Source: Bythopirellula sp. (lineage in GTDB: Bacteria > Planctomycetota > Planctomycetia > Pirellulales > Lacipirellulaceae). Taken from it: 64,000 nt of DNA. The stretch spans positions 1,056,001 through 1,120,000 of the forward strand of contig OZ244170.1 in NCBI GenBank assembly GCA_965216565.1, in the 5' to 3' direction. Position 1 is the first letter of the stretch; every line of letters starts with the position of its first letter. The position numbers and the translations under genes were made by a program. The notes below the pieces were generated by a model. The model was not told the origin of the DNA. It did no database searches and saw nothing but the letters and a program-made list of their open reading frames with translations. This document shows positions 1 through 45,942 of the stretch, piece by piece.

Positions 1-230
1 TTACAACTTGGACATAGGGGGTGGAGACTAGCATGACAACTATGTGCCTTTGCCAGCTCTATTTAGCCTGGAGCAGAATCGGAACAAGGAATAGGGGACA
101 ATGAGCCGTCTTACCTCTGTTGCCCAGTCCAAGCAAACACAACCGAGTTGCTTGCCGATGCTCTGCGCTCTGTCCCACACCTCCGTACTTGTATCTCTAA
201 AGAGGTCTCTAATACTTTGACAAAAGGAGG

Positions 231-800
231 ATGAATCCCATGATCGACTACTCAACCATTCGCGTCTCAAAACTTCAGCAACTCTGCAAGGCTGGGGCAA
301 TCAACTTGATCGACGTCCGGACACCAGTAGAGTTCCGAGAGATTCATACTGATTGCGCGCGCAATGTTCCCTTGGACAAACTATCAAGAGAATTATCTAG
401 CAGTCTATGGAACGGCACGCACGCCCAGCCGCTTTATGTCATGTGCAACAGCGGAAATCGCTCGGCGAAGGCCTGCCAAGAACTTGCTAGTGCCGGTCGT
501 GAGGACGTCTTCGACGTAGAAGGTGGCTTACAGGCGTGGATTGATACTGGACTTCCAGTGATTCGTGGCAAGAAGGCAGTCTCGCTGGAGAGACAAGTTC
601 GAATTGTTGCCGGAGCCATTGTGCTGGTGGGAGCAATTCTGGCGATGGCCGTTCATCCCTACTTCGCCGGCATATCGGCTTTTGTAGGTGCTGGCCTCAT
701 GTTCGCCGGGATTACCGACACCTGTGGCATGGCAATGATGCTGGCCAAAATGCCCTGGAATCAAGTGACAGATGAGACACCCACATGCTCTGTTGATTGA
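231..800 (+). CDS. Rhodanese domain protein with C-terminal DUF2892 membrane domain (YgaP-like)
   Basis: LIDVRTPVEF, active-site loop MCNSGNRS and VEGGLQAW, then ERQVRIVAG...FAGITDTCGMAMMLAKMPWN (DUF2892). Confidence 0.92.
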   Translation: MNPMIDYSTIRVSKLQQLCKAGAINLIDVRTPVEFREIHTDCARNVPLDKLSRELSSSLWNGTHAQPLYVMCNSGNRSAKACQELASAGREDVFDVEGGLQAWIDTGLPVIRGKKAVSLERQVRIVAGAIVLVGAILAMAVHPYFAGISAFVGAGLMFAGITDTCGMAMMLAKMPWNQVTDETPTCSVD

Positions 801-34282: not shown

Positions 34283-35026
34283 TCAACCCATCGCAATCGT
34301 CCGTGCCAGTGGTTGCAGGATTGAGTCGATCACGTAGTCATCGAGCACTTCGTGGCACAGTTCGTTGAGCCTTTCGATCGTGCCGAGGTAGCTTTGGTCA
34401 GCGGCCAGGCTGCCGTATTGGCGGGCGGTGACGTAGACGCTGATCTGCTCTTCCTGATACTCGCCGGTGCGAATCTGATAGGCGTTCGAGCGAGATTCTA
34501 GACTGATGCGACATTGCAGTCGGCAATTCTCGTCGAGTGAGAAAGTGAAGTTCGGCTCGTAATTAATTGCCGTGGCTCCAGGCATGTGCATGAACTTTTC
34601 GAATGCAGGGCACAATCCTAGTGCTTCGGCGATCAGCTGGTTGTGATTGCCGCGATACGAGAAATCGAAGCCAATCAGTAGATCCAAGGCTTCGCAATCC
34701 ATAGGGCTTATCGACAGGGCATACGGTGCGACTTCCAATGCATGTCGATGCTGATCGAGCACGCTTTCCATCGATTCTGGATTCACCTGGCCAGAACAAA
34801 CGCGGCGTGCTTCGACCGTGCACCAGCGATAGTTTCCCTTGTCTTTATCTTCTTCGAGAATAAAGTCGTGTTTGTCACGAGAGTAAAAGTTTCGCATCTC
34901 CGGATACTTTTTCTGCATCTGTTCGAAGTAGTGCAGAACAGTCTCGCGATTGCTGGGAAGCTCCATCTCCGTGCTGAGATTCATGTTGACGTAAAAGTCG
35001 TCGGATAGCGAACTATAGGGATTCAT
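34283..35026 (-). CDS. Hypothetical protein
   Basis: Clean 247-aa ORF with globular composition; no family recognised. Confidence 0.75.
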   Translation of the reverse strand: MNPYSSLSDDFYVNMNLSTEMELPSNRETVLHYFEQMQKKYPEMRNFYSRDKHDFILEEDKDKGNYRWCTVEARRVCSGQVNPESMESVLDQHRHALEVAPYALSISPMDCEALDLLIGFDFSYRGNHNQLIAEALGLCPAFEKFMHMPGATAINYEPNFTFSLDENCRLQCRISLESRSNAYQIRTGEYQEEQISVYVTARQYGSLAADQSYLGTIERLNELCHEVLDDYVIDSILQPLARTIAMG

Positions 35027-35941: not shown

Positions 35942-38900
35942 CTAAGCCGCTTCCAGCGAACGACAGTGCTGAGCCAATTCAATCCAACGGCTAATGCGTT
36001 TGGCCGAAGGTGCTTCTGCGGAGCGTAGGATACGTTGTCCCTGCTTCGTCTCGCAAAACTCTTGCACGCGTGAAATCAGTTCCGTCGGATCAAACGATGA
36101 GATCTCATTTGGCTTGGTCAACCCGCAGGCCACCAAGAGCATTGCACCATACCCGTGCAGTTCAGGAATTTGGCACACAAGCCGTGCTTGATTTTGCCAT
36201 TCGAGAATTGTCTTGCTGCGGATGTGTCGGGTATCGAGCAATTCTGCTGTGGACTCTGGATCGGCTTCCAGCAGGTCGTTAACGGTGTGGATGCCCACCT
36301 TGGCCAGTCGCTCTGCAGTCTTGGGTCCGATAGAAGGTGCCGCTTCAACATCACTCGAAAGTTCGAGATGGAATCGCCATTCATGACTTTGCCGGTCTGA
36401 TCCATTGCTGCTCGTGCGACGAGCATCGCCATTTCTTCGCGAGCGCGATCCGTTGCTGCGCGAGCGATTACCTCGTGATGCATTGCGTCGCGAAGAATTG
36501 CTGGACGAACTAGCGCCCCGACGAGAGCTTCTTTCGCGGGCTCCACCAGCCGCATAAATCCAGTCGTCGGTGCGGCTACGTGAATAGCGACTTCGATTTG
36601 TCTCAAAACGACCGTTGCGTTCAGACTCCAGGAAACTTGAAATCAAAGTCCACAGGTCTCCCGTATGGGCGTGCCGCAAGTCGTGCGGCGACATGATTCC
36701 CACCGCGGTTAGCAATTGGGCATCGTTCAGCGTTAGCTCAGGCACTTCGCACAACAGCCGCATGTGCGATTGCCACAGCGAGACGGTTGCTTCGGAAATG
36801 TCATCACGATCAAGCCGTCTGGCGATCGTCTTAGCATCGGCGTCGAGCAGATCGCCCACCGTATGGATTTCCAGTCGCGAGAAAACCGTGGCGGTGTCTT
36901 TTCCTAACACGGGGAACTCATTCAGCGAGCTGTGTGTCGATAGATAAAATACAGCTTCAATGTTGCCTGCTCCGTGTCCCGAAGCGAGTCTCAAGCCGGG
37001 ACTTTGCTCCCCATCGAACGTCTCACGAACAAGACGAGAGGACTTCTTTTTCACGGAGGTTGTTCGCGGCACGGGTGCTAGAGCTTCCCTGCCGAGTTCA
37101 ACAATGTGTGTGCTCAGAGATTCAAACGAATCGAGAGCCCGGGAATGGTCGGTAAGGAGCAAAACTTGATGTCCGGCTCTGCCGAAGCGATCAAGAACTC
37201 CCGCCATCACTGCCGCGTCAGCTGGGTCTTGCCGCAAGAAGGGCTCATCGAGCACCAGCGGTAGAGTCACGCCCTGCGTCGCAAAGGAACTGACAAGGCT
37301 CAATGTGAGTGCCAGGTAGAGTTGATCTCGCTCAGCCGGCTTGAGCGAGCCGGCATGGTGCGCTTGCCGTTGTTTGTCGACCACTCGAATCGTTTGCTGA
37401 TCTCGACTCAGACGCACCTGGGCAAACTTACCATTGGTGAGTTGCGCGAAGATATCTGAAACAGTCCAATGGTCAGCAAAACCTTGGGCCGGATCAAGAA
37501 CCTGCACATCCAGAGCCTGCTTGAGCAGGGATTCCAGTCGATCGATTTCCGCCCTGTCGGCTTCAATGGAAGAGCCTTCCACCAAACCAGCGCGCTCTTC
37601 TTGTAGTCGTTTCCAAGTAGTTTCGAGCTGCACAACCTCACGACCCAAGGCGGAAAGCTGGTTCAAAAGTTGGTAGCGATCTCGTTCGAGTAGGCCCCGC
37701 ATTTCTGCAGCGTCAGACTCGTTGGCCCAGTTGGCATCGCGGTGGCTTGCGGAAACATGGTGCCCATGTTGTTCGCAGTCGCAGTAATCCACAACGGGCG
37801 ACGTAGGAGTGACGGGACCCGCATAGTGAGGCGTGCGGGCAGACTCCAAGAGTGCTTCCCTATTGGTCAGCAGTTGCTCCAAACGGTCGGCCAACTCGAT
37901 CTGCACTCGATTCAGTTGGTGCAGTTCGTTCTGCACTGCTTGACGTTTTGCATTTCGCTGCTGTTCGGAAATCTGTCCGCACAGGCTGTAAACTTGTTTG
38001 CGGAGTAGTTCAGCAATGGGCGAAAAACGTGCGTGGGCATCTTCCTCAATCGAATGTTGCGACTGGGTTGTGCGGGCCAATTGGGCGACTTCGCTATCGA
38101 GGTCGTCAATCAATCGCTCCAGAACTCCAACAGTCCGCCGACTCTCAGCAAGAGCCGTAACGCGCGGGGCAGAGCCATCTGCCGTTAACTTGGCGAGTTC
38201 CGTATGCAGGTTGGCAGAGCGTGCCTGAGTATCGGTTAGGGTTTGACGACAGCGGAGGATTTCTTCGTCGAGTTCCCGGAGCTGGCGTTCATGCTCGTCT
38301 GTGCAGTGGTGCGAGGGGCGAGTTGAATGTTGATCGAGTGAATGGTAACGCAACGTGGTATCGAGGCGTGAAAGCTTCGATTCAACGTCTTGCAGCTGCG
38401 ATTGAAGCTCGTCGATCTGTTGGCGGCGGTTCTTGAGTGCTGCATCGACTTGGGCGGCTTCCTGCTCCAAGAGGTGACTATCGCGTCGGCCTGCGTGCAT
38501 GCGCTCTTCTAGCTGTTGGGCGATCGCATTGCGACGTCGTACGAGTTCTTCTACCCGCTGTTTATCGATTGGCTTATGGGCTACCGCGTTTCGATTCTCG
38601 TGCGGAAGCTGTGCGCCTAGGTATTGGGCAAACGGCGAGTCCAGCAGCAGCAAAGGATCTGGGGCAGATTGAAAATCGACGGCCAACAGGTTGGCGGCGC
38701 TCTTCAAGGGCAAGTCGCCTAACGCCGAGTGCAGCCAACGTGTGTCGGTGTGCTGGCCATCGGTGCCGGAGACAAACAGTTGGCTGCCTCCCTGACCGTG
38801 GTTCTTTCGTTCGAGCACATAGTCATTCGCATCTTTGCATACAAGGAGCGTTCCGCTCGCTACGGCGTCCTCGGGACGTACTCGAAATCGATGCGCCGAC

Positions 38901-39058
38901 TCGGTTTTGCCATAGAGAAGGTGGGCGATGAGCCCTGCCAGGGCACTTTTGCCGCCACGATTGCCAGAGTGAATTACGTTTAGGCCTGGTACGAGTCCGT
39001 CGAGGGAAACCTGGGGACAAGCGCCATTGCCGGTGAGATTGATTCCTGTAATTTTCAT
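35942..39058 (-). CDS. SMC/Rad50/YhaN-like coiled-coil ATPase-fold protein fused to two DUF4332 (HhH-like) domains
   Basis: MKITGI...GLNVIHSGNRGGKS, long coiled coil, ERDQLYLAL, LPLVLDEPF; two C-terminal repeats (LGKDTA...WQSHMRLLCEVP; IGPKTAERL...WQNQARLVCQIP). Confidence 0.8.
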   Translation of the reverse strand: MKITGINLTGNGACPQVSLDGLVPGLNVIHSGNRGGKSALAGLIAHLLYGKTESAHRFRVRPEDAVASGTLLVCKDANDYVLERKNHGQGGSQLFVSGTDGQHTDTRWLHSALGDLPLKSAANLLAVDFQSAPDPLLLLDSPFAQYLGAQLPHENRNAVAHKPIDKQRVEELVRRRNAIAQQLEERMHAGRRDSHLLEQEAAQVDAALKNRRQQIDELQSQLQDVESKLSRLDTTLRYHSLDQHSTRPSHHCTDEHERQLRELDEEILRCRQTLTDTQARSANLHTELAKLTADGSAPRVTALAESRRTVGVLERLIDDLDSEVAQLARTTQSQHSIEEDAHARFSPIAELLRKQVYSLCGQISEQQRNAKRQAVQNELHQLNRVQIELADRLEQLLTNREALLESARTPHYAGPVTPTSPVVDYCDCEQHGHHVSASHRDANWANESDAAEMRGLLERDRYQLLNQLSALGREVVQLETTWKRLQEERAGLVEGSSIEADRAEIDRLESLLKQALDVQVLDPAQGFADHWTVSDIFAQLTNGKFAQVRLSRDQQTIRVVDKQRQAHHAGSLKPAERDQLYLALTLSLVSSFATQGVTLPLVLDEPFLRQDPADAAVMAGVLDRFGRAGHQVLLLTDHSRALDSFESLSTHIVELGREALAPVPRTTSVKKKSSRLVRETFDGEQSPGLRLASGHGAGNIEAVFYLSTHSSLNEFPVLGKDTATVFSRLEIHTVGDLLDADAKTIARRLDRDDISEATVSLWQSHMRLLCEVPELTLNDAQLLTAVGIMSPHDLRHAHTGDLWTLISSFLESERNGRFETNRSRYSRSRTDDWIYAAGGARERSSRRGASSSSNSSRRNASRGNRSRSNGSRSRRNGDARRTSSNGSDRQSHEWRFHLELSSDVEAAPSIGPKTAERLAKVGIHTVNDLLEADPESTAELLDTRHIRSKTILEWQNQARLVCQIPELHGYGAMLLVACGLTKPNEISSFDPTELISRVQEFCETKQGQRILRSAEAPSAKRISRWIELAQHCRSLEAA

Positions 39059-39292
39059 CCGTGTGCATCCTTGCGGGAGAAATTGGTGTTTTCGAAACAG
39101 TCGTCTGGGATTAATAACTGTTTGAGCAGAAAAAATAGCCCAAAAACGATATTTCGACAACATGAATCTAGCATTGCTAGCTGAGCTGATGTCTGATCGA
39201 ATGCTGCGATATGCAGCGATTGTCGTAACATCGCGAGCCGTGGCGTCTTCGCCCACGGCAGGCCATTCACTCAACCGATACATCAGAAAGCC

Positions 39293-40417
39293 GTGGACAA
39301 AAGCAACCACTTCGATTCGATCGTGATTGGTGTGGGTGGCGTGGGTAGCGCAGCCCTGTGGCAACTTGCGAGCCGCGGCGAACGCGTGCTGGGCCTCGAT
39401 CAGTTTCAGCCGCCGCACAAGCAGGGGAGTTCGCACGGGCAGACGCGCATCATCCGTCAGGCCTACTTCGAGCACCCCAATTACACGCCATTGCTCTTAG
39501 ATGTCTACAACCAGTGGCAGGAACTTAGCGAGCAAACGAGTCGCCAACTCTATCACGAAGTGGGCGTTTTGCAGATCGGGCCTTCCGAGGGCGAGGTCAT
39601 CCAGGGAGTGACGCTCTCTTCGCAGACGCACCAGCTCCACATCGAAGAGCTCTCCGCCGCCGACATCTCCCAACGCTGGCCAGTGCTGCGTGTGCCCGAG
39701 GAATTGGTCGGCGTGTACGAACCGCGCGCCGGCTACCTGCATGTCGAACAGTGTGTGCAGGCGCAGTTAGATGCGGCTGCGAGCGCTGGCGCCGAGCTGC
39801 GAACCGACGTCGAAGTGCAAGCCTGGCAACCTGGGCCGCCGGTTCGCATAGCGACCACTGCCGGTGATTTCCAATCAGATCGCCTCGTTATTGCTGCCGG
39901 AGCCTGGGCAGCCAGCCTGTTACACGATCTCGGATTGCAACTTGAAGTCCGTCGTAAAAGCATGTTCTGGTACGAGCCCGCCAATGAGGCTAGGTCCGAC
40001 TATCAGGACGTTCCCTGCTTCCTCTACGAGCTGCCGGCAGGGGTCTACTACGGACTTCCCAGGCATGACCGGCGCGGCGTCAAACTCGCAGAGCATTCTG
40101 GCGGAAACGTTGTGAAAGATCTCGCGACTGTGCCTAGAGAAGTGGACCCCACCGACGTCGAGCGCTTGCGCTCTTTCTCGCAGCAATATCTGCATGGACT
40201 TCCGCCGACGCATCGAGATCACGAAGTGTGCATGTACACGATGAGCCGCGACGGGCACTTCATCGTCGATCGGCATCCACAGCACCCGCATGTGGCACTG
40301 GCAGCGGGGCTATCGGGTCACGGGTTCAAGTTCACCCCGATCCTCGGCAAAGCCCTGGCCGACTTGGTGCTGGAAGGCCGCACCGCTATGCCGATCGACT
40401 TCTTGAGGTTGCGTTGA
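39293..40417 (+). CDS. solA: Monomeric sarcosine/N-methyltryptophan/pipecolate oxidase family flavoprotein
   Basis: IVIGVGGVGSA, GSSHGQTRIIR, CMYT (covalent-FAD Cys), GLSGHGFKF. Confidence 0.88.
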   Translation: MDKSNHFDSIVIGVGGVGSAALWQLASRGERVLGLDQFQPPHKQGSSHGQTRIIRQAYFEHPNYTPLLLDVYNQWQELSEQTSRQLYHEVGVLQIGPSEGEVIQGVTLSSQTHQLHIEELSAADISQRWPVLRVPEELVGVYEPRAGYLHVEQCVQAQLDAAASAGAELRTDVEVQAWQPGPPVRIATTAGDFQSDRLVIAAGAWAASLLHDLGLQLEVRRKSMFWYEPANEARSDYQDVPCFLYELPAGVYYGLPRHDRRGVKLAEHSGGNVVKDLATVPREVDPTDVERLRSFSQQYLHGLPPTHRDHEVCMYTMSRDGHFIVDRHPQHPHVALAAGLSGHGFKFTPILGKALADLVLEGRTAMPIDFLRLR

Positions 40418-40481
40418 TTAGGCAGCGCCTTGCCGCGAGTCGAAAAACAGGGACTGGCTCGACGCTGAATAGAAGACAGAA

Positions 40482-40576
40482 GTAGGGTGGGCCACAGCGC
40501 AGCGACGGCCCACCGTCCCGGCAAGTTTTAAGCGAGTGAAATCGGTGGGCTGCCGCTCCGCTTTAGCCCACCCTAC
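40482..40576. repeat. GTAG-type REP doublet
   Basis: GTAGGGTGGGCC...GGCCCACC and GGTGGGC...AGCCCACCCTAC. Confidence 0.8.
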
Positions 40577-40686
40577 GCATGATAGTGGCAACAAACTTGC
40601 CATTGCGTCAGTGCTCGTGGGTTTTCAACACATAGTTTCGCAATCACGAGCCATTCCCCATTCCAAGTTCACAGAACGCCGTAGTA

Positions 40687-42093
40687 TCAGCCAGCCCCGG
40701 CTTTTCGCGGATCGGTACGGGAGATGATTTCGTTCACGCCGGTCTTGTTGAACCCTTTAAAGCCATCGTTGCGTTCTAAGATCTCCAAGTGAGACCCGAT
40801 CGCACCTTGATTACGAAAATGTTCGGCTTCGTTGGGAGAAATCGCCCCTTTGGCTAGGGTTGCCTCGAGACGATCTTCATCAACCTCCCAGTTCTCGCCA
40901 ATCGTGAACGCTTGACGCAGGAAGGTAGAATCGGTGAAGGGGGCCATGGATTCGACGCCGGCCTCCGCCAGTTGCACGCGGGCCGCATCAAAGTCGAATT
41001 GACATTCCAAGTGATGCATCCCGGCTTGCAACAGCGACTCACCATGCAGGGAACACCACAGGCCCACAGTGCCCAGATTGTCCAGCGGCGGTAGACCTTG
41101 ATGTGCAAAGTCGCCGCTGACTTCCTCTGGCGAGAGGTCCACATCGGCGAACACTACGATCCCGGCCCGCGGCTGCTCCATCACCTGGGCGCCCCAGCCA
41201 GCTTCGTCGCCGGCATAGGTGCGTTCGCGGCATACCAAGCCAAGTTTTTCAAGTACCGCCACCAATGGGGCAAAGCCTGCGCGGCTCGAACGGTAGGTGT
41301 GGTGATCGTGATTCGCCCAGCCAAGCCCTAGCTTTTGCTGCCTCTCGTACTGCACACGAGCGGCATGGTTGCGGCTCTGCCAATATCTGCGTTCGCCTGC
41401 GAAGAACAAATCGCACGCCCAATCCACTCCAAGATCGGCCACCGCCGCGTCGATCAGTTGGCCACACAATTCGAATGCTTCGTCCTCACTGGCGGCATCG
41501 TTTTGAAAAACGCGAGTGCGCTGCGCAAAGGCGCGAAGATGCTTGGAAGCTTGAGCGATCTGTTTATTGCTACAGGTCGGCCAGCTAAAATCGGGATGGC
41601 CGTGACGCTCGATGCCGGCAAGGCATGGTCCTTTTGTTCTGTCGAGTAGCGCGAGCCGCAGCGTGCTCCCAGGTTTGCCCAGGTGCGTGGTTTTGTTGCT
41701 CCCATACGCAAGAGAGAATTGCTCAACGCATTCGACCTTGATGCCCAGCACGTTTTGGCCATCGTTGTGGTCAATGTTTTGTTCGTCGAATAAGGAAGTA
41801 GAAAACACCACTGTCGGAAAGATACCGCCCGGGTGACGCCATACGGTGTCGGAGCTGTCGTCCGCAGTAAATCCCACGTTTTGCAGAGTTTCCGGTGTGC
41901 AGAGATCATGGTCCTGGAGAAAGAAGGAATCAACCCAATCCAGCAATCGAGTTCCCGTCTGCTCCAGCAGTCGAGTTCCCAATTGATCGATATCGGGGCT
42001 CTCGTTACGGAACGAATTCAGAAGGCGATCAATTACTTCGGCGGCAGCCGGTTGTGGCTTCCACCCAAAGTGATGCAAGCCGTCGCTAGGCAT
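40687..42093 (-). CDS. Putative VOC-fold alpha-keto-acid dioxygenase (HPPD/HglS-like)
   Basis: NHDHHTYR, AGMHHLE, FLRQAFT and HLEILER...GFKGFN align conceptually with the His/His/Glu triad and C-terminal helix of HPPD/DUF1338 enzymes. Confidence 0.6.
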   Translation of the reverse strand: MPSDGLHHFGWKPQPAAAEVIDRLLNSFRNESPDIDQLGTRLLEQTGTRLLDWVDSFFLQDHDLCTPETLQNVGFTADDSSDTVWRHPGGIFPTVVFSTSLFDEQNIDHNDGQNVLGIKVECVEQFSLAYGSNKTTHLGKPGSTLRLALLDRTKGPCLAGIERHGHPDFSWPTCSNKQIAQASKHLRAFAQRTRVFQNDAASEDEAFELCGQLIDAAVADLGVDWACDLFFAGERRYWQSRNHAARVQYERQQKLGLGWANHDHHTYRSSRAGFAPLVAVLEKLGLVCRERTYAGDEAGWGAQVMEQPRAGIVVFADVDLSPEEVSGDFAHQGLPPLDNLGTVGLWCSLHGESLLQAGMHHLECQFDFDAARVQLAEAGVESMAPFTDSTFLRQAFTIGENWEVDEDRLEATLAKGAISPNEAEHFRNQGAIGSHLEILERNDGFKGFNKTGVNEIISRTDPRKAGAG

Positions 42094-42273
42094 GCCAAGT
42101 TCCCCTTTGTGGATTGGAGTTGTCGCTGGCGAGGCTCATGCCATAGGATGAGCCCAGCTAAATTGTATTCACTAAAAACATCCTGGTTATCTTTTGTATA
42201 GTCTGCTGGGGCATCGCGGAACAGAGCCCGACGACAGTATTCGCGTTCCACAAACTGAAGAATTAGGTTCGAT

Positions 42274-43404
42274 ATGCATCGTGTGTTACTAATGGGTGCC
42301 GGCAAAATTGGCCGGATGATTACTCGACTCTTAATCGACTCGGGAGACTACCAAGTCACGGTTGCCGATGCCGATATGGATTCGCTCGCACGACTGTCGA
42401 AGCAGGCGGGAATCGACACATTACAAGTCGACGCGGCAAATCGCGAACAGCTAGTGGCGGCAATGAAAGATTGTCAGGCCGTGATCTCAGCGCTCAGCTT
42501 TCGATTCAATCCCCTCATTGCCGATGTGGCGCTCGAAACGGGTTGCAGCTATTTCGATTTGACCGAGGACGTAGAGACCACGCGAGCTGTCCGCAACGTT
42601 GGGGAAAAAGCGGCCGAAGGCCAGATCTTCATGCCCCAGTGCGGGTTGGCTCCTGGTTTTATTTCGATCGTCGCCAAGCACCTGGCCGACACGTTCGACG
42701 AGCTCGATACTGTCCACATGCGCGTGGGGGCTCTGCCCCAGTTCCCCACGGGTGCCCTCAAATACAACCTCACTTGGAGCACCGATGGGCTAATCAACGA
42801 GTATTGCAATCCTTGCGAAGCAATCCACGAACATCGCAAGGTGGATCTGCTCGCCTTGGAAGGATTCGAGCACTTCTCGCTCGATGGCGTTCGCTACGAA
42901 GCGTTCAACACTAGTGGCGGACTTGGTACCCTGTGCGAAACGCTCGAAGGCAACGTGCGCGAGCTAAATTACAAAACCGTCCGCTATCAAGGTCACCGCG
43001 ATCAGGTGTTGCTGTTAGTGAATGAGTTGCGCCTCAGCGAACGGCGTGATTTGTTGAAAGATATCCTTGAGAACGCTGTGCCGGTTACTTTTCAAGATGT
43101 GGTCGTGACTTTCTGCACCGTCACCGGCAAACGCGATGGCCAGTTTGTGCAATTGAGTGACGCTCGAAAAATCTACAATGTCTCGATTAATGACGAGAAC
43201 TGGAGTGCGATTCAGATAACCACAGCTGCGGGAATATGCACGGTTCTCGATATGCATTTCACCAACCAACTTCCCAGCAGTGGTTTTGTACGGCAAGAGC
43301 AGGTCGATTTCACCAAGTTCCTCGCAAATCGCTTTGGCAAGTATTACGATTCCCAGGTCTCCAGCAAGTTTGCAGGCGGAGCACCATCTAACAACGACGA
43401 TTGA
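42274..43404 (+). CDS. Lysine 6-dehydrogenase / saccharopine dehydrogenase family protein
   Basis: GAGKIG, YFDLTEDV, QCGLAPG, YNLTWSTDGLINEY, EAFNTSGG, YKTVRY.GH. Confidence 0.88.
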   Translation: MHRVLLMGAGKIGRMITRLLIDSGDYQVTVADADMDSLARLSKQAGIDTLQVDAANREQLVAAMKDCQAVISALSFRFNPLIADVALETGCSYFDLTEDVETTRAVRNVGEKAAEGQIFMPQCGLAPGFISIVAKHLADTFDELDTVHMRVGALPQFPTGALKYNLTWSTDGLINEYCNPCEAIHEHRKVDLLALEGFEHFSLDGVRYEAFNTSGGLGTLCETLEGNVRELNYKTVRYQGHRDQVLLLVNELRLSERRDLLKDILENAVPVTFQDVVVTFCTVTGKRDGQFVQLSDARKIYNVSINDENWSAIQITTAAGICTVLDMHFTNQLPSSGFVRQEQVDFTKFLANRFGKYYDSQVSSKFAGGAPSNNDD

Positions 43405-43409
43405 GTCCT

Positions 43410-44948
43410 ATGAATACAGCAGTAGAAGCAGCGACAAAAGCACTAGGCATCCACCTCCCCGCCCAGGCGGTAGCCGTCGGTGGCCAGTGGCAGGAGGGCA
43501 CCGGAGAGAAACACGTCGTGCGATCGCCAATTGATGGCAGCACGTTGATTGAGTTTCCATTGGCCAGTGCCGACCAAGTCGACGAGGTCACCGCTCAGGC
43601 TGCCGAGGCGTTTACGGCTTGGCGAGTTTTACCAGCACCAGTGCGGGGCGAATTTGTTCGCCGCTTTGGGCAGTGCCTGCGAGAAAACCTCAACGATCTC
43701 GCCACCCTTGTCAGTTGGGAAGCCGGCAAGATCACCGCCGAAGCCGCTGGCGAAGTGCAGGAGATGATCGACATCTGCGATTTTGCCGTCGGACTGAGCC
43801 GCCAACTTTACGGCAAGTCGATCGCCAGCGAACGTCCCGGGCATCGTCTCACCGAACAGTGGCTGCCGCTGGGACCGGTGGGTGTGATCTCCGCGTTCAA
43901 TTTTCCCGTCGCCGTATGGGCTTGGAATGCAGCGATAGCCTGGGTCTGCGGCGACCCTGTGGTTTGGAAGCCTTCCGAGAAAACACCACTAACGGCAATC
44001 GCCTGCCAGGCTCTCGCTGCTAAGACAATTCAAGAGATGTCCGAGGTCCCGCCAGCAATTTCTTCACTAGTGATTGGCAAAGCCGACGTCGGTCAGCGAC
44101 TCGCCGAGTCTCCACACTTGCCGCTAGTCTCCGCCACCGGTTCAGTGCCGATGGGACGAGCCGTCGCCCAAACCGTAGCCGCCAGATTGGGCAAATCGCT
44201 TTTGGAACTAGGCGGAAACAACGGCATGATCGTCGCTCCGTCGGCAGATATGGAACTTGCTGTACGCTCGATCACTTTCTCCGCCGTTGGCACTTGCGGC
44301 CAACGTTGCACCACGTTGCGGCGTTTGATCGTCCATAACTCGGTGGCCGACGGGCTCCGCGATCGATTGCTAGAAGTCTTCACACAACTGCCGATTGGCA
44401 ATCCAACGGCAGAGAGCACGCTCATCGGTCCGTTGATCGACGAACAGGCAGCCGATGCCATGGATCAGGCGCTAACCACCGCGGCAGAGCAGGGCGGTAC
44501 CGTTCACGGTGGGGGACGCGTGACAGACAACGTCCCCGAGGGCGGAGTCTATGTGCGACCGGCATTGGTGGAAATCGATGCCAATGCCGAGATTCTGCAG
44601 CAGGAAACGTTTGCCCCGATCCTGTACTTCATGCGTTACGACAATCTGCAGGAGGCGATCGCCCTTCACAACAATGTGCCGCAGGGACTCGCCTCGGCAA
44701 TTCTCACGACCGACGTCCGCGAGGCCGAATTGTTTTGCTCGGCTGCTGGTTCCGATTGCGGGATCGTTAACGTCAACATTGGCACGAGCGGTGCGGAAAT
44801 CGGCGGTGCCTTCGGCGGCGAGAAAGAGACGGGTGGTGGGCGAGAATCTGGCAGCGATGCCTGGAAACTCTACATGCGTCGTGCCACCAATACGGTAAAC
44901 TATTCGGAAGAATTGCCGCTGGCCCAAGGCATTAAATTCGACGTGTAA
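43410..44948 (+). CDS. ALDH7-type aldehyde dehydrogenase (piperideine-6-carboxylate/aminoadipate-semialdehyde dehydrogenase)
   Basis: GEVQEMIDICDFAVGLSRQLYG, ISAFNFPVAVWAWN, LELGGNN, GQRCTT, GAEIGGAFGGEKETGGGRESGSDAWK. Confidence 0.93.
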   Translation: MNTAVEAATKALGIHLPAQAVAVGGQWQEGTGEKHVVRSPIDGSTLIEFPLASADQVDEVTAQAAEAFTAWRVLPAPVRGEFVRRFGQCLRENLNDLATLVSWEAGKITAEAAGEVQEMIDICDFAVGLSRQLYGKSIASERPGHRLTEQWLPLGPVGVISAFNFPVAVWAWNAAIAWVCGDPVVWKPSEKTPLTAIACQALAAKTIQEMSEVPPAISSLVIGKADVGQRLAESPHLPLVSATGSVPMGRAVAQTVAARLGKSLLELGGNNGMIVAPSADMELAVRSITFSAVGTCGQRCTTLRRLIVHNSVADGLRDRLLEVFTQLPIGNPTAESTLIGPLIDEQAADAMDQALTTAAEQGGTVHGGGRVTDNVPEGGVYVRPALVEIDANAEILQQETFAPILYFMRYDNLQEAIALHNNVPQGLASAILTTDVREAELFCSAAGSDCGIVNVNIGTSGAEIGGAFGGEKETGGGRESGSDAWKLYMRRATNTVNYSEELPLAQGIKFDV

Positions 44949-45018
44949 CGAAAGCTGCACTCTACATGGACCTTTGGCTGCGATCCCCGTTGCTTCACTC
45001 GCAAATAAGGTCATCTCG

Positions 45019-45942
45019 ATGAATCGTCGCAATTTTGTCGCGCTAGGCAGCGTGGCAGGTGCTGCCGCACTCACAGCCGCCACTTCCCTGGCAGAGGAAA
45101 ACCAGGTGGATGCTGAACTCAAGTTCCAACTCAAATATGCTCCCCACTTTGGAATGTTCAAGCACTCCGCAGGCGACGACCCCATCGCCCAGCTACGCTT
45201 CGCCGCCGACCAGGGTTTCACGGCCTGGGAAGACAACAACATGGGCAAACGCTCCGCTGAAGAGCAGAAGAAGATTGCCCAAACCATGGAAGAATTGGGC
45301 CTCGAAATGGGGGTCTTCGTGGGCAGTAGCATCAACTGGAAGAAGCCTACTTTAACAACCGGCAAGAAAGAGCATCGCGATAAGTTTCTGGAAGAAATCC
45401 GGGCCTCGATCGATGTAGCCAAGCGTGTCCGGGCAAAGTGGATGACAGTCGTGCCGGGACACGTCGATCTCCGCCAAGAGCTGGACTACCAAACAGCGCA
45501 CGTGGTGGACAGTTTGCGCCGGGCGGCTGAACTCTTGGAGCCACACAACTTGACGATGGTCTTAGAGCCACTCAACTGGTGGACCAACCACGCAGGACTA
45601 TTCTTGGATCGCATTCCCCAGGCATTTCAAATCTGTCGGGCCGTCGACAGTCCCGCTTGCAAGATCCTGTTCGATATTTATCACCAGCAAATTGCCGAGG
45701 GCAATCTGATTCCCAACATCGACAAAGCCTGGGACGAAATCGGGTACTTCCAAATCGGCGACAACCCCGGCCGCAAGGAACCCGGCACCGGCGAAATCAA
45801 CTACCGAAACGTATTCCGGCACATCCATGCCAAGGGTTTCGACGGCATCCTCGGCATGGAGCACGGCAACAGCCAAGCAGGCAAAGCCGGCGAGCAAGCG
45901 GTGATCGACGCCTACGTAGCCGCGGATCGCTTTAGCGAATAG
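45019..45942 (+). CDS. Tat-exported hydroxypyruvate isomerase/xylose isomerase-like TIM barrel protein
   Basis: MNRRNFV twin-arginine signal, VLEPLN, ILFDIYHQQ, DNPGRKEPGTGEINY, GMEH. Confidence 0.9.
   Translation: MNRRNFVALGSVAGAAALTAATSLAEENQVDAELKFQLKYAPHFGMFKHSAGDDPIAQLRFAADQGFTAWEDNNMGKRSAEEQKKIAQTMEELGLEMGVFVGSSINWKKPTLTTGKKEHRDKFLEEIRASIDVAKRVRAKWMTVVPGHVDLRQELDYQTAHVVDSLRRAAELLEPHNLTMVLEPLNWWTNHAGLFLDRIPQAFQICRAVDSPACKILFDIYHQQIAEGNLIPNIDKAWDEIGYFQIGDNPGRKEPGTGEINYRNVFRHIHAKGFDGILGMEHGNSQAGKAGEQAVIDAYVAADRFSE

Follow-up and report, generated by a model that had tools for sequence, protein, structure and literature searches.

A two-domain protein encoded beside lysine-catabolic genes in Bythopirellula is a candidate divergent 2-oxoadipate dioxygenase/decarboxylase

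A 64,000-nucleotide stretch of the Bythopirellula sp. genome (assembly GCA_965216565.1, contig OZ244170.1, positions 1,056,001 to 1,120,000 of the forward strand; here called the window, in which coordinates are given unless a locus is named) encodes a hypothetical protein of 468 residues, designated X, whose gene is divergent across 180 bp from a gene of the lysine dehydrogenase (LysDH) family and a gene for a putative piperideine-6-carboxylate (P6C) dehydrogenase (Pcd). By analogy with hydroxyglutarate synthase (HglS; DUF1338, PF07063), X is likely to be an enzyme that uses Fe(II) and O2 to convert 2-oxoadipate to D-2-hydroxyglutarate. This reading, which had been proposed from the sequence in an original prediction, is supported by the predicted fold, by the correspondence of active-site residues and their conservation, by linkage to lysine genes and by a distribution complementary to that of HglS. 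X probably belongs to the HglS lineage of two-substrate alpha-keto-acid oxygenases, as a distant member with two domains, and it appears to stand in for PF07063 HglS in many planctomycetes.

Results

Predicted fold and active site of X

Two AlphaFold2 models of X have a pLDDT of 93.5, and a VIA structure comparison against 48,161 chains placed three DUF1338/HglS structures at the top. The best match is rice hydroxyglutarate synthase (FLO7) with 2-oxoadipate (6w1k; Z 16.0, root-mean-square deviation (rmsd) 3.0, 210 aligned residues), which spans residues 218-467 of X and is followed by 3iuz from Ralstonia (Z 15.6) and 3lho from Shewanella (14.8), and then by hydroxymandelate synthase (HMS; 12.0), YdcJ (2rjb; 11.5) and HPPD (9.3). 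The second model left the top three unchanged (6w1k: Z 15.4, rmsd 4.2, 217 aligned residues) and matched P. putida HglS (6w1g/6w1h) with Z 11.9 and 11.6. X is therefore predicted to possess the VOC beta-barrel of HglS, which the DUF1338/HglS structures share with it at Z 11.5-16.0, although identity on structure is just 13-17%. The original prediction had pointed to both HPPD and HglS; the VOC fold and the likeness to HglS stand, whereas HPPD is not the closest relative.

Eight short HglS proteins from planctomycetes were used as the HglS reference profile, which matches 3lho (E 2e-111) and 6w1k (E 2e-52). An hhalign alignment of the C-terminal domain of X to this profile over 211 columns places H264, R268, H361 and E437 on H40, R44, H164 and E234, thereby aligning the proposed His-His-Glu triad with that of HglS; this alignment scores poorly (probability 4.9%, E 0.008), and so supports the register and not homology on its own. 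The His-x3-Arg, His and Glu residues occur in the same order and at aligned positions in both proteins. According to 10.1101/2020.01.30.927905, the metal ligands of HglS are H70, H226 and E294, R74 is the substrate arginine, and the R74A variant is inactive. H264, H361 and E437 lie on beta-strands of the X model and would be expected to cluster around one predicted metal site. H264, R268, H361 and E437 are conserved without exception in the 119 close homologues, and among 78 distant homologues the triad is kept in 67, the arginine in 70, and triad and arginine together in 65. The four motifs quoted in the original prediction were all located in the 468-residue translation (Table 1). A complete triad is lacking in 11 of the 78 distant homologues, and a divergent subgroup (P0254, P0256, P0258, P0262, P0225, P0246, P0249, P0266 and similar sequences) has lost one or more triad residues or R268, making a non-catalytic or re-purposed branch possible.

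Unlike HglS, X possesses an extra N-terminal domain of 170 residues and a helical linker, and the original prediction is corrected accordingly: the HglS-like domain is one of two. Residues from about 10 to 170 match the start of short HglS (hhalign probability 32-36%, E about 4e-4) and, weakly, the C-terminal domain of X itself (E 0.006); in an hhalign run with the whole protein, only the N-terminal domain was matched. Small VOC proteins are paired with this domain in the whole-protein VIA search (Z 5.5-6.2). The position of the first histidine holds His in 55 of the 78 distant homologues and Ser in X from the window, the arginine and glutamate positions are not conserved among these homologues, and the triad is missing. 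On these VIA and weak profile matches the N-terminal domain reads as a degenerate VOC duplicate, and its role is probably structural.

X as a protein family

X is not recognised by the sequence models searched. Searches with the single sequence and with a profile returned no match in Pfam (0 families at E 0.5), NCBIfam or the PDB sequences, including the HglS models PF07063, NF049974 and NF050083 and the models and solved chains of HPPD and HMS. The ESM Atlas gave unnamed clusters only, with no usable named match for residues 220-468, and a plasmid search gave no match. At least 6,182 homologues are present among 8,000 scored candidates, and X matches 695 of the clusters formed at 50% identity. 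Relatives that carry names are planctomycetes, the closest of which are Lacipirellulaceae-like, and three of ten distant representatives carry the taxon names Aminicenantes, Chlamydiia and Peregrinibacteria. No description of the X family or of planctomycete lysine catabolism was found in literature searches, which mostly did not cover subscription journals.

Linkage of X to lysine genes

Genome neighbourhoods were counted at the 80 best-scoring X loci among at least 594, a choice that biases the counts towards close relatives. Of these 80 loci, 44 have a LysDH-like gene near X, divergent and adjacent in 41 and co-directional in three, and 33 have Pcd, compared with only six of 80 for each of two unrelated control neighbours. 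The linkage between X and the LysDH-like gene exceeds chance, and linkage to lysine genes in relatives, set beforehand as a test of the prediction, was borne out. LysDH is likewise found in 33 and Pcd in 25 of 80 metagenome X loci. The gaps between X and LysDH in the 41 divergent loci measure about 73-320 bp; no regulator site was found in these intergenic regions, where the commonest 7-mers resemble -10 boxes, and a search of window positions 38800-45200 found no sigma-70 consensus.

Aminotransferases also occur beside X, and the partners differ by lineage. Of the 57 loci of family f92, 20 were inspected, and in 15 of these the gene immediately upstream of X encodes a class III aminotransferase (PRK05769); X is accompanied by both an aminotransferase and Pcd at loci L203 and L223. 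A class III aminotransferase is fused to X in a single record of 899 residues from an Isosphaeraceae metagenome-assembled genome (P0273), possibly an artefact of read-through or of a frameshift. At another locus (L243:5890-10649), X is followed by a phosphoglycerate dehydrogenase and by a GlcD-like FAD 2-hydroxyacid oxidase, either of which could plausibly act on D-2-hydroxyglutarate.

Complementary distribution of X and HglS

The window genome, which is 94.3% complete on one contig, contains no PF07063 protein. In a sample of 251 genomes of its class, X is present in 87, a count that leaves out one spurious match (G360, E 9e-4, two stops), and PF07063 HglS in 52; no genome possesses both, against an expectation of 18. 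Leaving out f92, the largest X family, gives 30 genomes with X, 52 with HglS and again none with both among 191 (8.2 expected), and a phylum sample of 251 genomes, some of them in common with the class sample, gives 20, 19 and an overlap of 0 against an expectation of only about 1.5. Of the 93 genomes with Pcd, 65 possess X, 24 possess HglS and four possess neither, such that exactly one of the two is present in 89, compared with 50 of the 158 genomes lacking Pcd (X in 22, HglS in 28). LysDH-positive genomes (n=37) comprise 23 with X, 12 with HglS and two with neither.

In seven of the nine HglS-bearing genomes from the window genome's own family, the HglS gene immediately precedes LysDH, and Pcd comes next in six of the seven; the known HglS occupies in these relatives the same gene position as X does here, although X is usually divergent from LysDH and short HglS is co-directional with it. 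Neither X, HglS, LysDH nor Pcd was found in a genome of the window's genus (G386, 97% complete), suggesting that gain or loss within the genus affected the cluster as a whole.

Partner genes and other features of the locus

All four open reading frames (ORFs) of the locus are present in the orientations originally described. The aldehyde dehydrogenase (ALDH) passes the P6C dehydrogenase model NF050084 (787.7 against a cut-off of 730 bits), confirming its assignment to the ALDH7 type; its TTG start overlaps the stop of the LysDH-like gene, and an ATG at 43410 is also possible. The 376-residue product of the LysDH-like gene possesses the Pfam domains PF03435 and PF16653 of the saccharopine-dehydrogenase fold and is coupled to Pcd in relatives. 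No NCBIfam equivalog was matched, and a dedicated LysDH model is absent among the matches listed. The best PDB matches are 3abi (PH1688; E 7e-23) and 3ic5 (E 4e-22), deposited as uncharacterised and putative saccharopine dehydrogenase. We take PH1688 to be a lysine 6-dehydrogenase, and the window protein is, from its sequence, probably an L-lysine 6-dehydrogenase that converts lysine to aminoadipate semialdehyde/P6C. None of the aminotransferase matches of the genome, 16 of which are to PF00155, falls inside the window, as had been stated, and the genome encodes two YdiJ-like proteins.

The flavoprotein gene that converges with X had been named as a SolA/pipecolate-oxidase relative. Its SolA membership is upheld by the solA/MTOX model NF008425 (424 against 257 bits; best PDB match 7exs, E 5e-92), but its membership of the pathway is not, given that it fails the pipecolate oxidase AmaA model NF050086 (19.2 against 600 bits) and lies near X in seven of 80 loci, at the level of the two control neighbours (six each). 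The gene is probably a syntenic bystander. Eukaryotic-type pipecolate oxidases belong to the sarcosine oxidase family, and such a role is possible for the SolA gene. In one genome that lacks X (L255), a SolA gene adjoins LysDH-Pcd, and sarcosine oxidases adjoin actinobacterial DUF1338 genes according to 10.1101/450254; the role is therefore regarded as unsupported rather than dismissed.

Between the convergent 3' ends of the SolA gene and X lies a palindromic REP-like repeat, which is outside the lysine pathway and has 15 blastn matches in the genome, two of them to itself, corresponding to roughly ten further complete or partial copies. Elsewhere in the window, positions 35942 to about 39055 (minus strand) encode a large protein with an AAA_27-like ATPase start, a coiled coil and two DUF4332/HhH domains, which is syntenic with X in six of 80 loci and has a paralogue-like match at around 180-183 kb of the genome. 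A 247-residue ORF at 34283-35026 (minus strand) has no Pfam match.

Table 1. Features of the X locus, of the X protein and of X loci in the anammox order
Feature	Position	Strand	Basis or remark
SolA-family flavoprotein gene	39293-40417	+	ORF list, sequence
Palindromic REP-like repeat	40479-40580		between convergent 3' ends of the SolA gene and X
X, 468 residues	40687-42093	-	ORF list, sequence
Divergent intergenic region, 180 bp	42094-42273		between X and the LysDH-like gene
Saccharopine/lysine-dehydrogenase-family gene, 376 residues	42274-43404	+	ORF list, PF03435 and PF16653
ALDH (Pcd/AmaB, ALDH7 type)	43401-44948	+	NF050084 above cut-off
Degenerate N-terminal VOC/HglS-like domain of X	residues about 10-170
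Helical linker of X	residues about 176-221
Catalytic HglS-like VOC domain of X	residues about 223-465		predicted ligands H264, H361, E437; R268
Motif NHDHHTYR of X	residues 261-268
Motif GMHHLE of X	residues 358-363
Motif LRQAFT of X	residues 392-397
Motif LEILERNDGFKGFN of X	residues 436-449
X loci of the anammox order	L151-L163		e.g. L153:6778-9354

X in the anammox order

The X family extends beyond lysine operons, into anammox genomes and arginine (ast) clusters. Of 61 genomes of the anammox order, 24 carry an intact X; the order was recognised by hydrazine synthase, which was found in all five members tested. All four active-site residues are kept in the nine sequences aligned, and X of this order falls into two well-supported clades in a FastTree of 47 sequences. 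A PRK06836 aminotransferase lies upstream of X in five of seven f29 loci and in none of four f74 loci. PF07063 was found in none of the 61 genomes, Pcd in one of 61, and LysDH and YdiJ in none of the five genomes tested for each. Genome G071, a possible anammox genome, carries a short HglS. Anammox bacteria are anaerobes, and the presence of X where lysine genes are mostly missing would allow for a different substrate or role there. It is conceivable, though unlikely, that X defines a second HglS family that takes the place of PF07063 in planctomycetes and in other phyla, and that the two anammox clades retain X without the lysine pathway for another use, either as an oxygen sink driven by 2-oxo acids or on a different 2-oxo acid supplied by the adjacent PRK06836 aminotransferase.

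Discussion

In the proposed route, the LysDH-like enzyme would, judging by its family, convert L-lysine to P6C, Pcd would, by its equivalog match, convert P6C to 2-aminoadipate, and an unlinked aminotransferase would give 2-oxoadipate. X would hold Fe(II) through H264, H361 and E437, with the 2-oxo-acid end of the substrate chelated and its distal carboxylate held by R268, and one O2 would then decarboxylate and hydroxylate 2-oxoadipate to 2-hydroxyglutarate, probably the D-form, by analogy with the mechanism of HglS. A YdiJ-like FAD/Fe-S dehydrogenase encoded elsewhere may convert 2-hydroxyglutarate to 2-oxoglutarate. LysDH is covered in PMC6397837. The route resembles the LysDH-AASADH(Pcd) lysine pathway and the AmaB-PP_4108-HglS-YdiJ route of P. 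putida, in which, according to 10.1101/450254, an ALDH7-type enzyme leads from P6C to 2-aminoadipate, followed by 2-oxoadipate, D-2-hydroxyglutarate and 2-oxoglutarate, with YdiJ acting after D-2-hydroxyglutarate. It differs from that of P. putida in its entry by a LysDH-like enzyme instead of the pipecolate oxidase AmaA, and in that its candidate transaminase and D-2-hydroxyglutarate dehydrogenase are unlinked and fall below equivalog cut-offs.

Several observations weigh against assigning X to this step. The window genome has no 2-aminoadipate transaminase above cut-off (best 240 against 650 bits) and no YdiJ above cut-off (603 against 1350 bits), X occurs without Pcd in 22 of 87 class genomes, and the genomes sampled are related and not independent, so that p-values for the exclusion of X and HglS are overstated. 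To these are added the weak hhalign score and the anammox genomes described above, the ranking given by Foldseek and two further gene contexts. By Foldseek alone, HMS and HPPD rank first (E about 2e-8) and HglS is absent from the matches listed. X also shares with HMS/HPPD (2r5v, 3zgj, 1cjx) a layout of two VOC-type domains, the catalytic one C-terminal, and a His-His-Glu triad, and its C-terminal E-I-x-x-R...GF presumably corresponds to the motif of HPPD. It is nonetheless hardly credible that X is an HPPD/HMS-like enzyme for an aromatic 2-oxo acid with lysine genes as chance neighbours. The Foldseek matches have TM-scores of merely 0.21-0.29 with rmsd near 20, and this pointer was set aside because the TM-scores are below 0.3 and VIA ranks HglS structures above HMS/HPPD (Z 8-13); the substrates of HMS/HPPD are aromatic, yet no aromatic-catabolism cluster recurred among the neighbours of X, where LysDH is linked in more than half of the genome loci. 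HglS and HMS/HPPD perform the same class of decarboxylation-hydroxylation chemistry, according to 10.1101/2020.01.30.927905.

An O2-independent VOC metalloenzyme, such as an epimerase, isomerase or glyoxalase-like lyase acting on an intermediate or damage product of the lysine pathway, would suit the anaerobic life of anammox bacteria, in which X is intact, and methylmalonyl-CoA epimerase and glyoxalase I are among the fold matches (Z 7-8.5). Such an identity is very improbable, given that these matches reach about half the Z of HglS over fewer residues, that the His-His-Glu and Arg pattern and the order of motifs follow HglS end to end, and that the exclusion of, and swap with, PF07063 would be left unexplained. 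Somewhat less improbable, but still doubtful, is that X is an HglS-type oxygenase whose preferred or additional substrate is a different 2-oxo acid, either one arising in arginine/ornithine catabolism or a further dicarboxylic one, with the family split by substrate. X lies beside a complete ast cluster at L228/L229, near-identical loci that amount to one case, and behind an ornithine-aminotransferase-like gene at L204, L223 and L236, and this alternative would also account for the variation of aminotransferase partners among lineages and the missing lysine genes of anammox genomes. However, authentic short HglS is itself found in ast clusters in four of 15 loci, such that X and HglS share both contexts and the ast context does not separate them. 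Each of the 12 rows in the anammox alignment retains R268, X here has LysDH and Pcd as neighbours in the position that HglS takes in relatives, and P. putida HglS is reported to be active on 2-oxoadipate only (10.1101/2020.01.30.927905). At L135, L136, L138 and L139 (for example, L136:8253-15907), short PF07063 HglS is convergent at the 3' end of astA-astD-astB, accompanied at two of these loci by a class III aminotransferase and an M20 hydrolase, and this astA-astD-astB-like cluster may also handle lysine.

As a 2-oxoadipate dioxygenase/decarboxylase, X would fill the step after 2-oxoadipate in 65 of the 93 Pcd-bearing genomes sampled, where existing models otherwise leave a gap. The chemistry of X is itself probably already known, but a testable function would be gained for at least 6,182 protein clusters of one family that the Pfam and NCBIfam copies searched fail to detect, and the small group of two-substrate alpha-keto-acid oxygenases would gain a new architecture, with a degenerate duplicated VOC domain. 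The retention of X by anammox bacteria is a surprise and raises the question of an O2-using enzyme in anaerobes.

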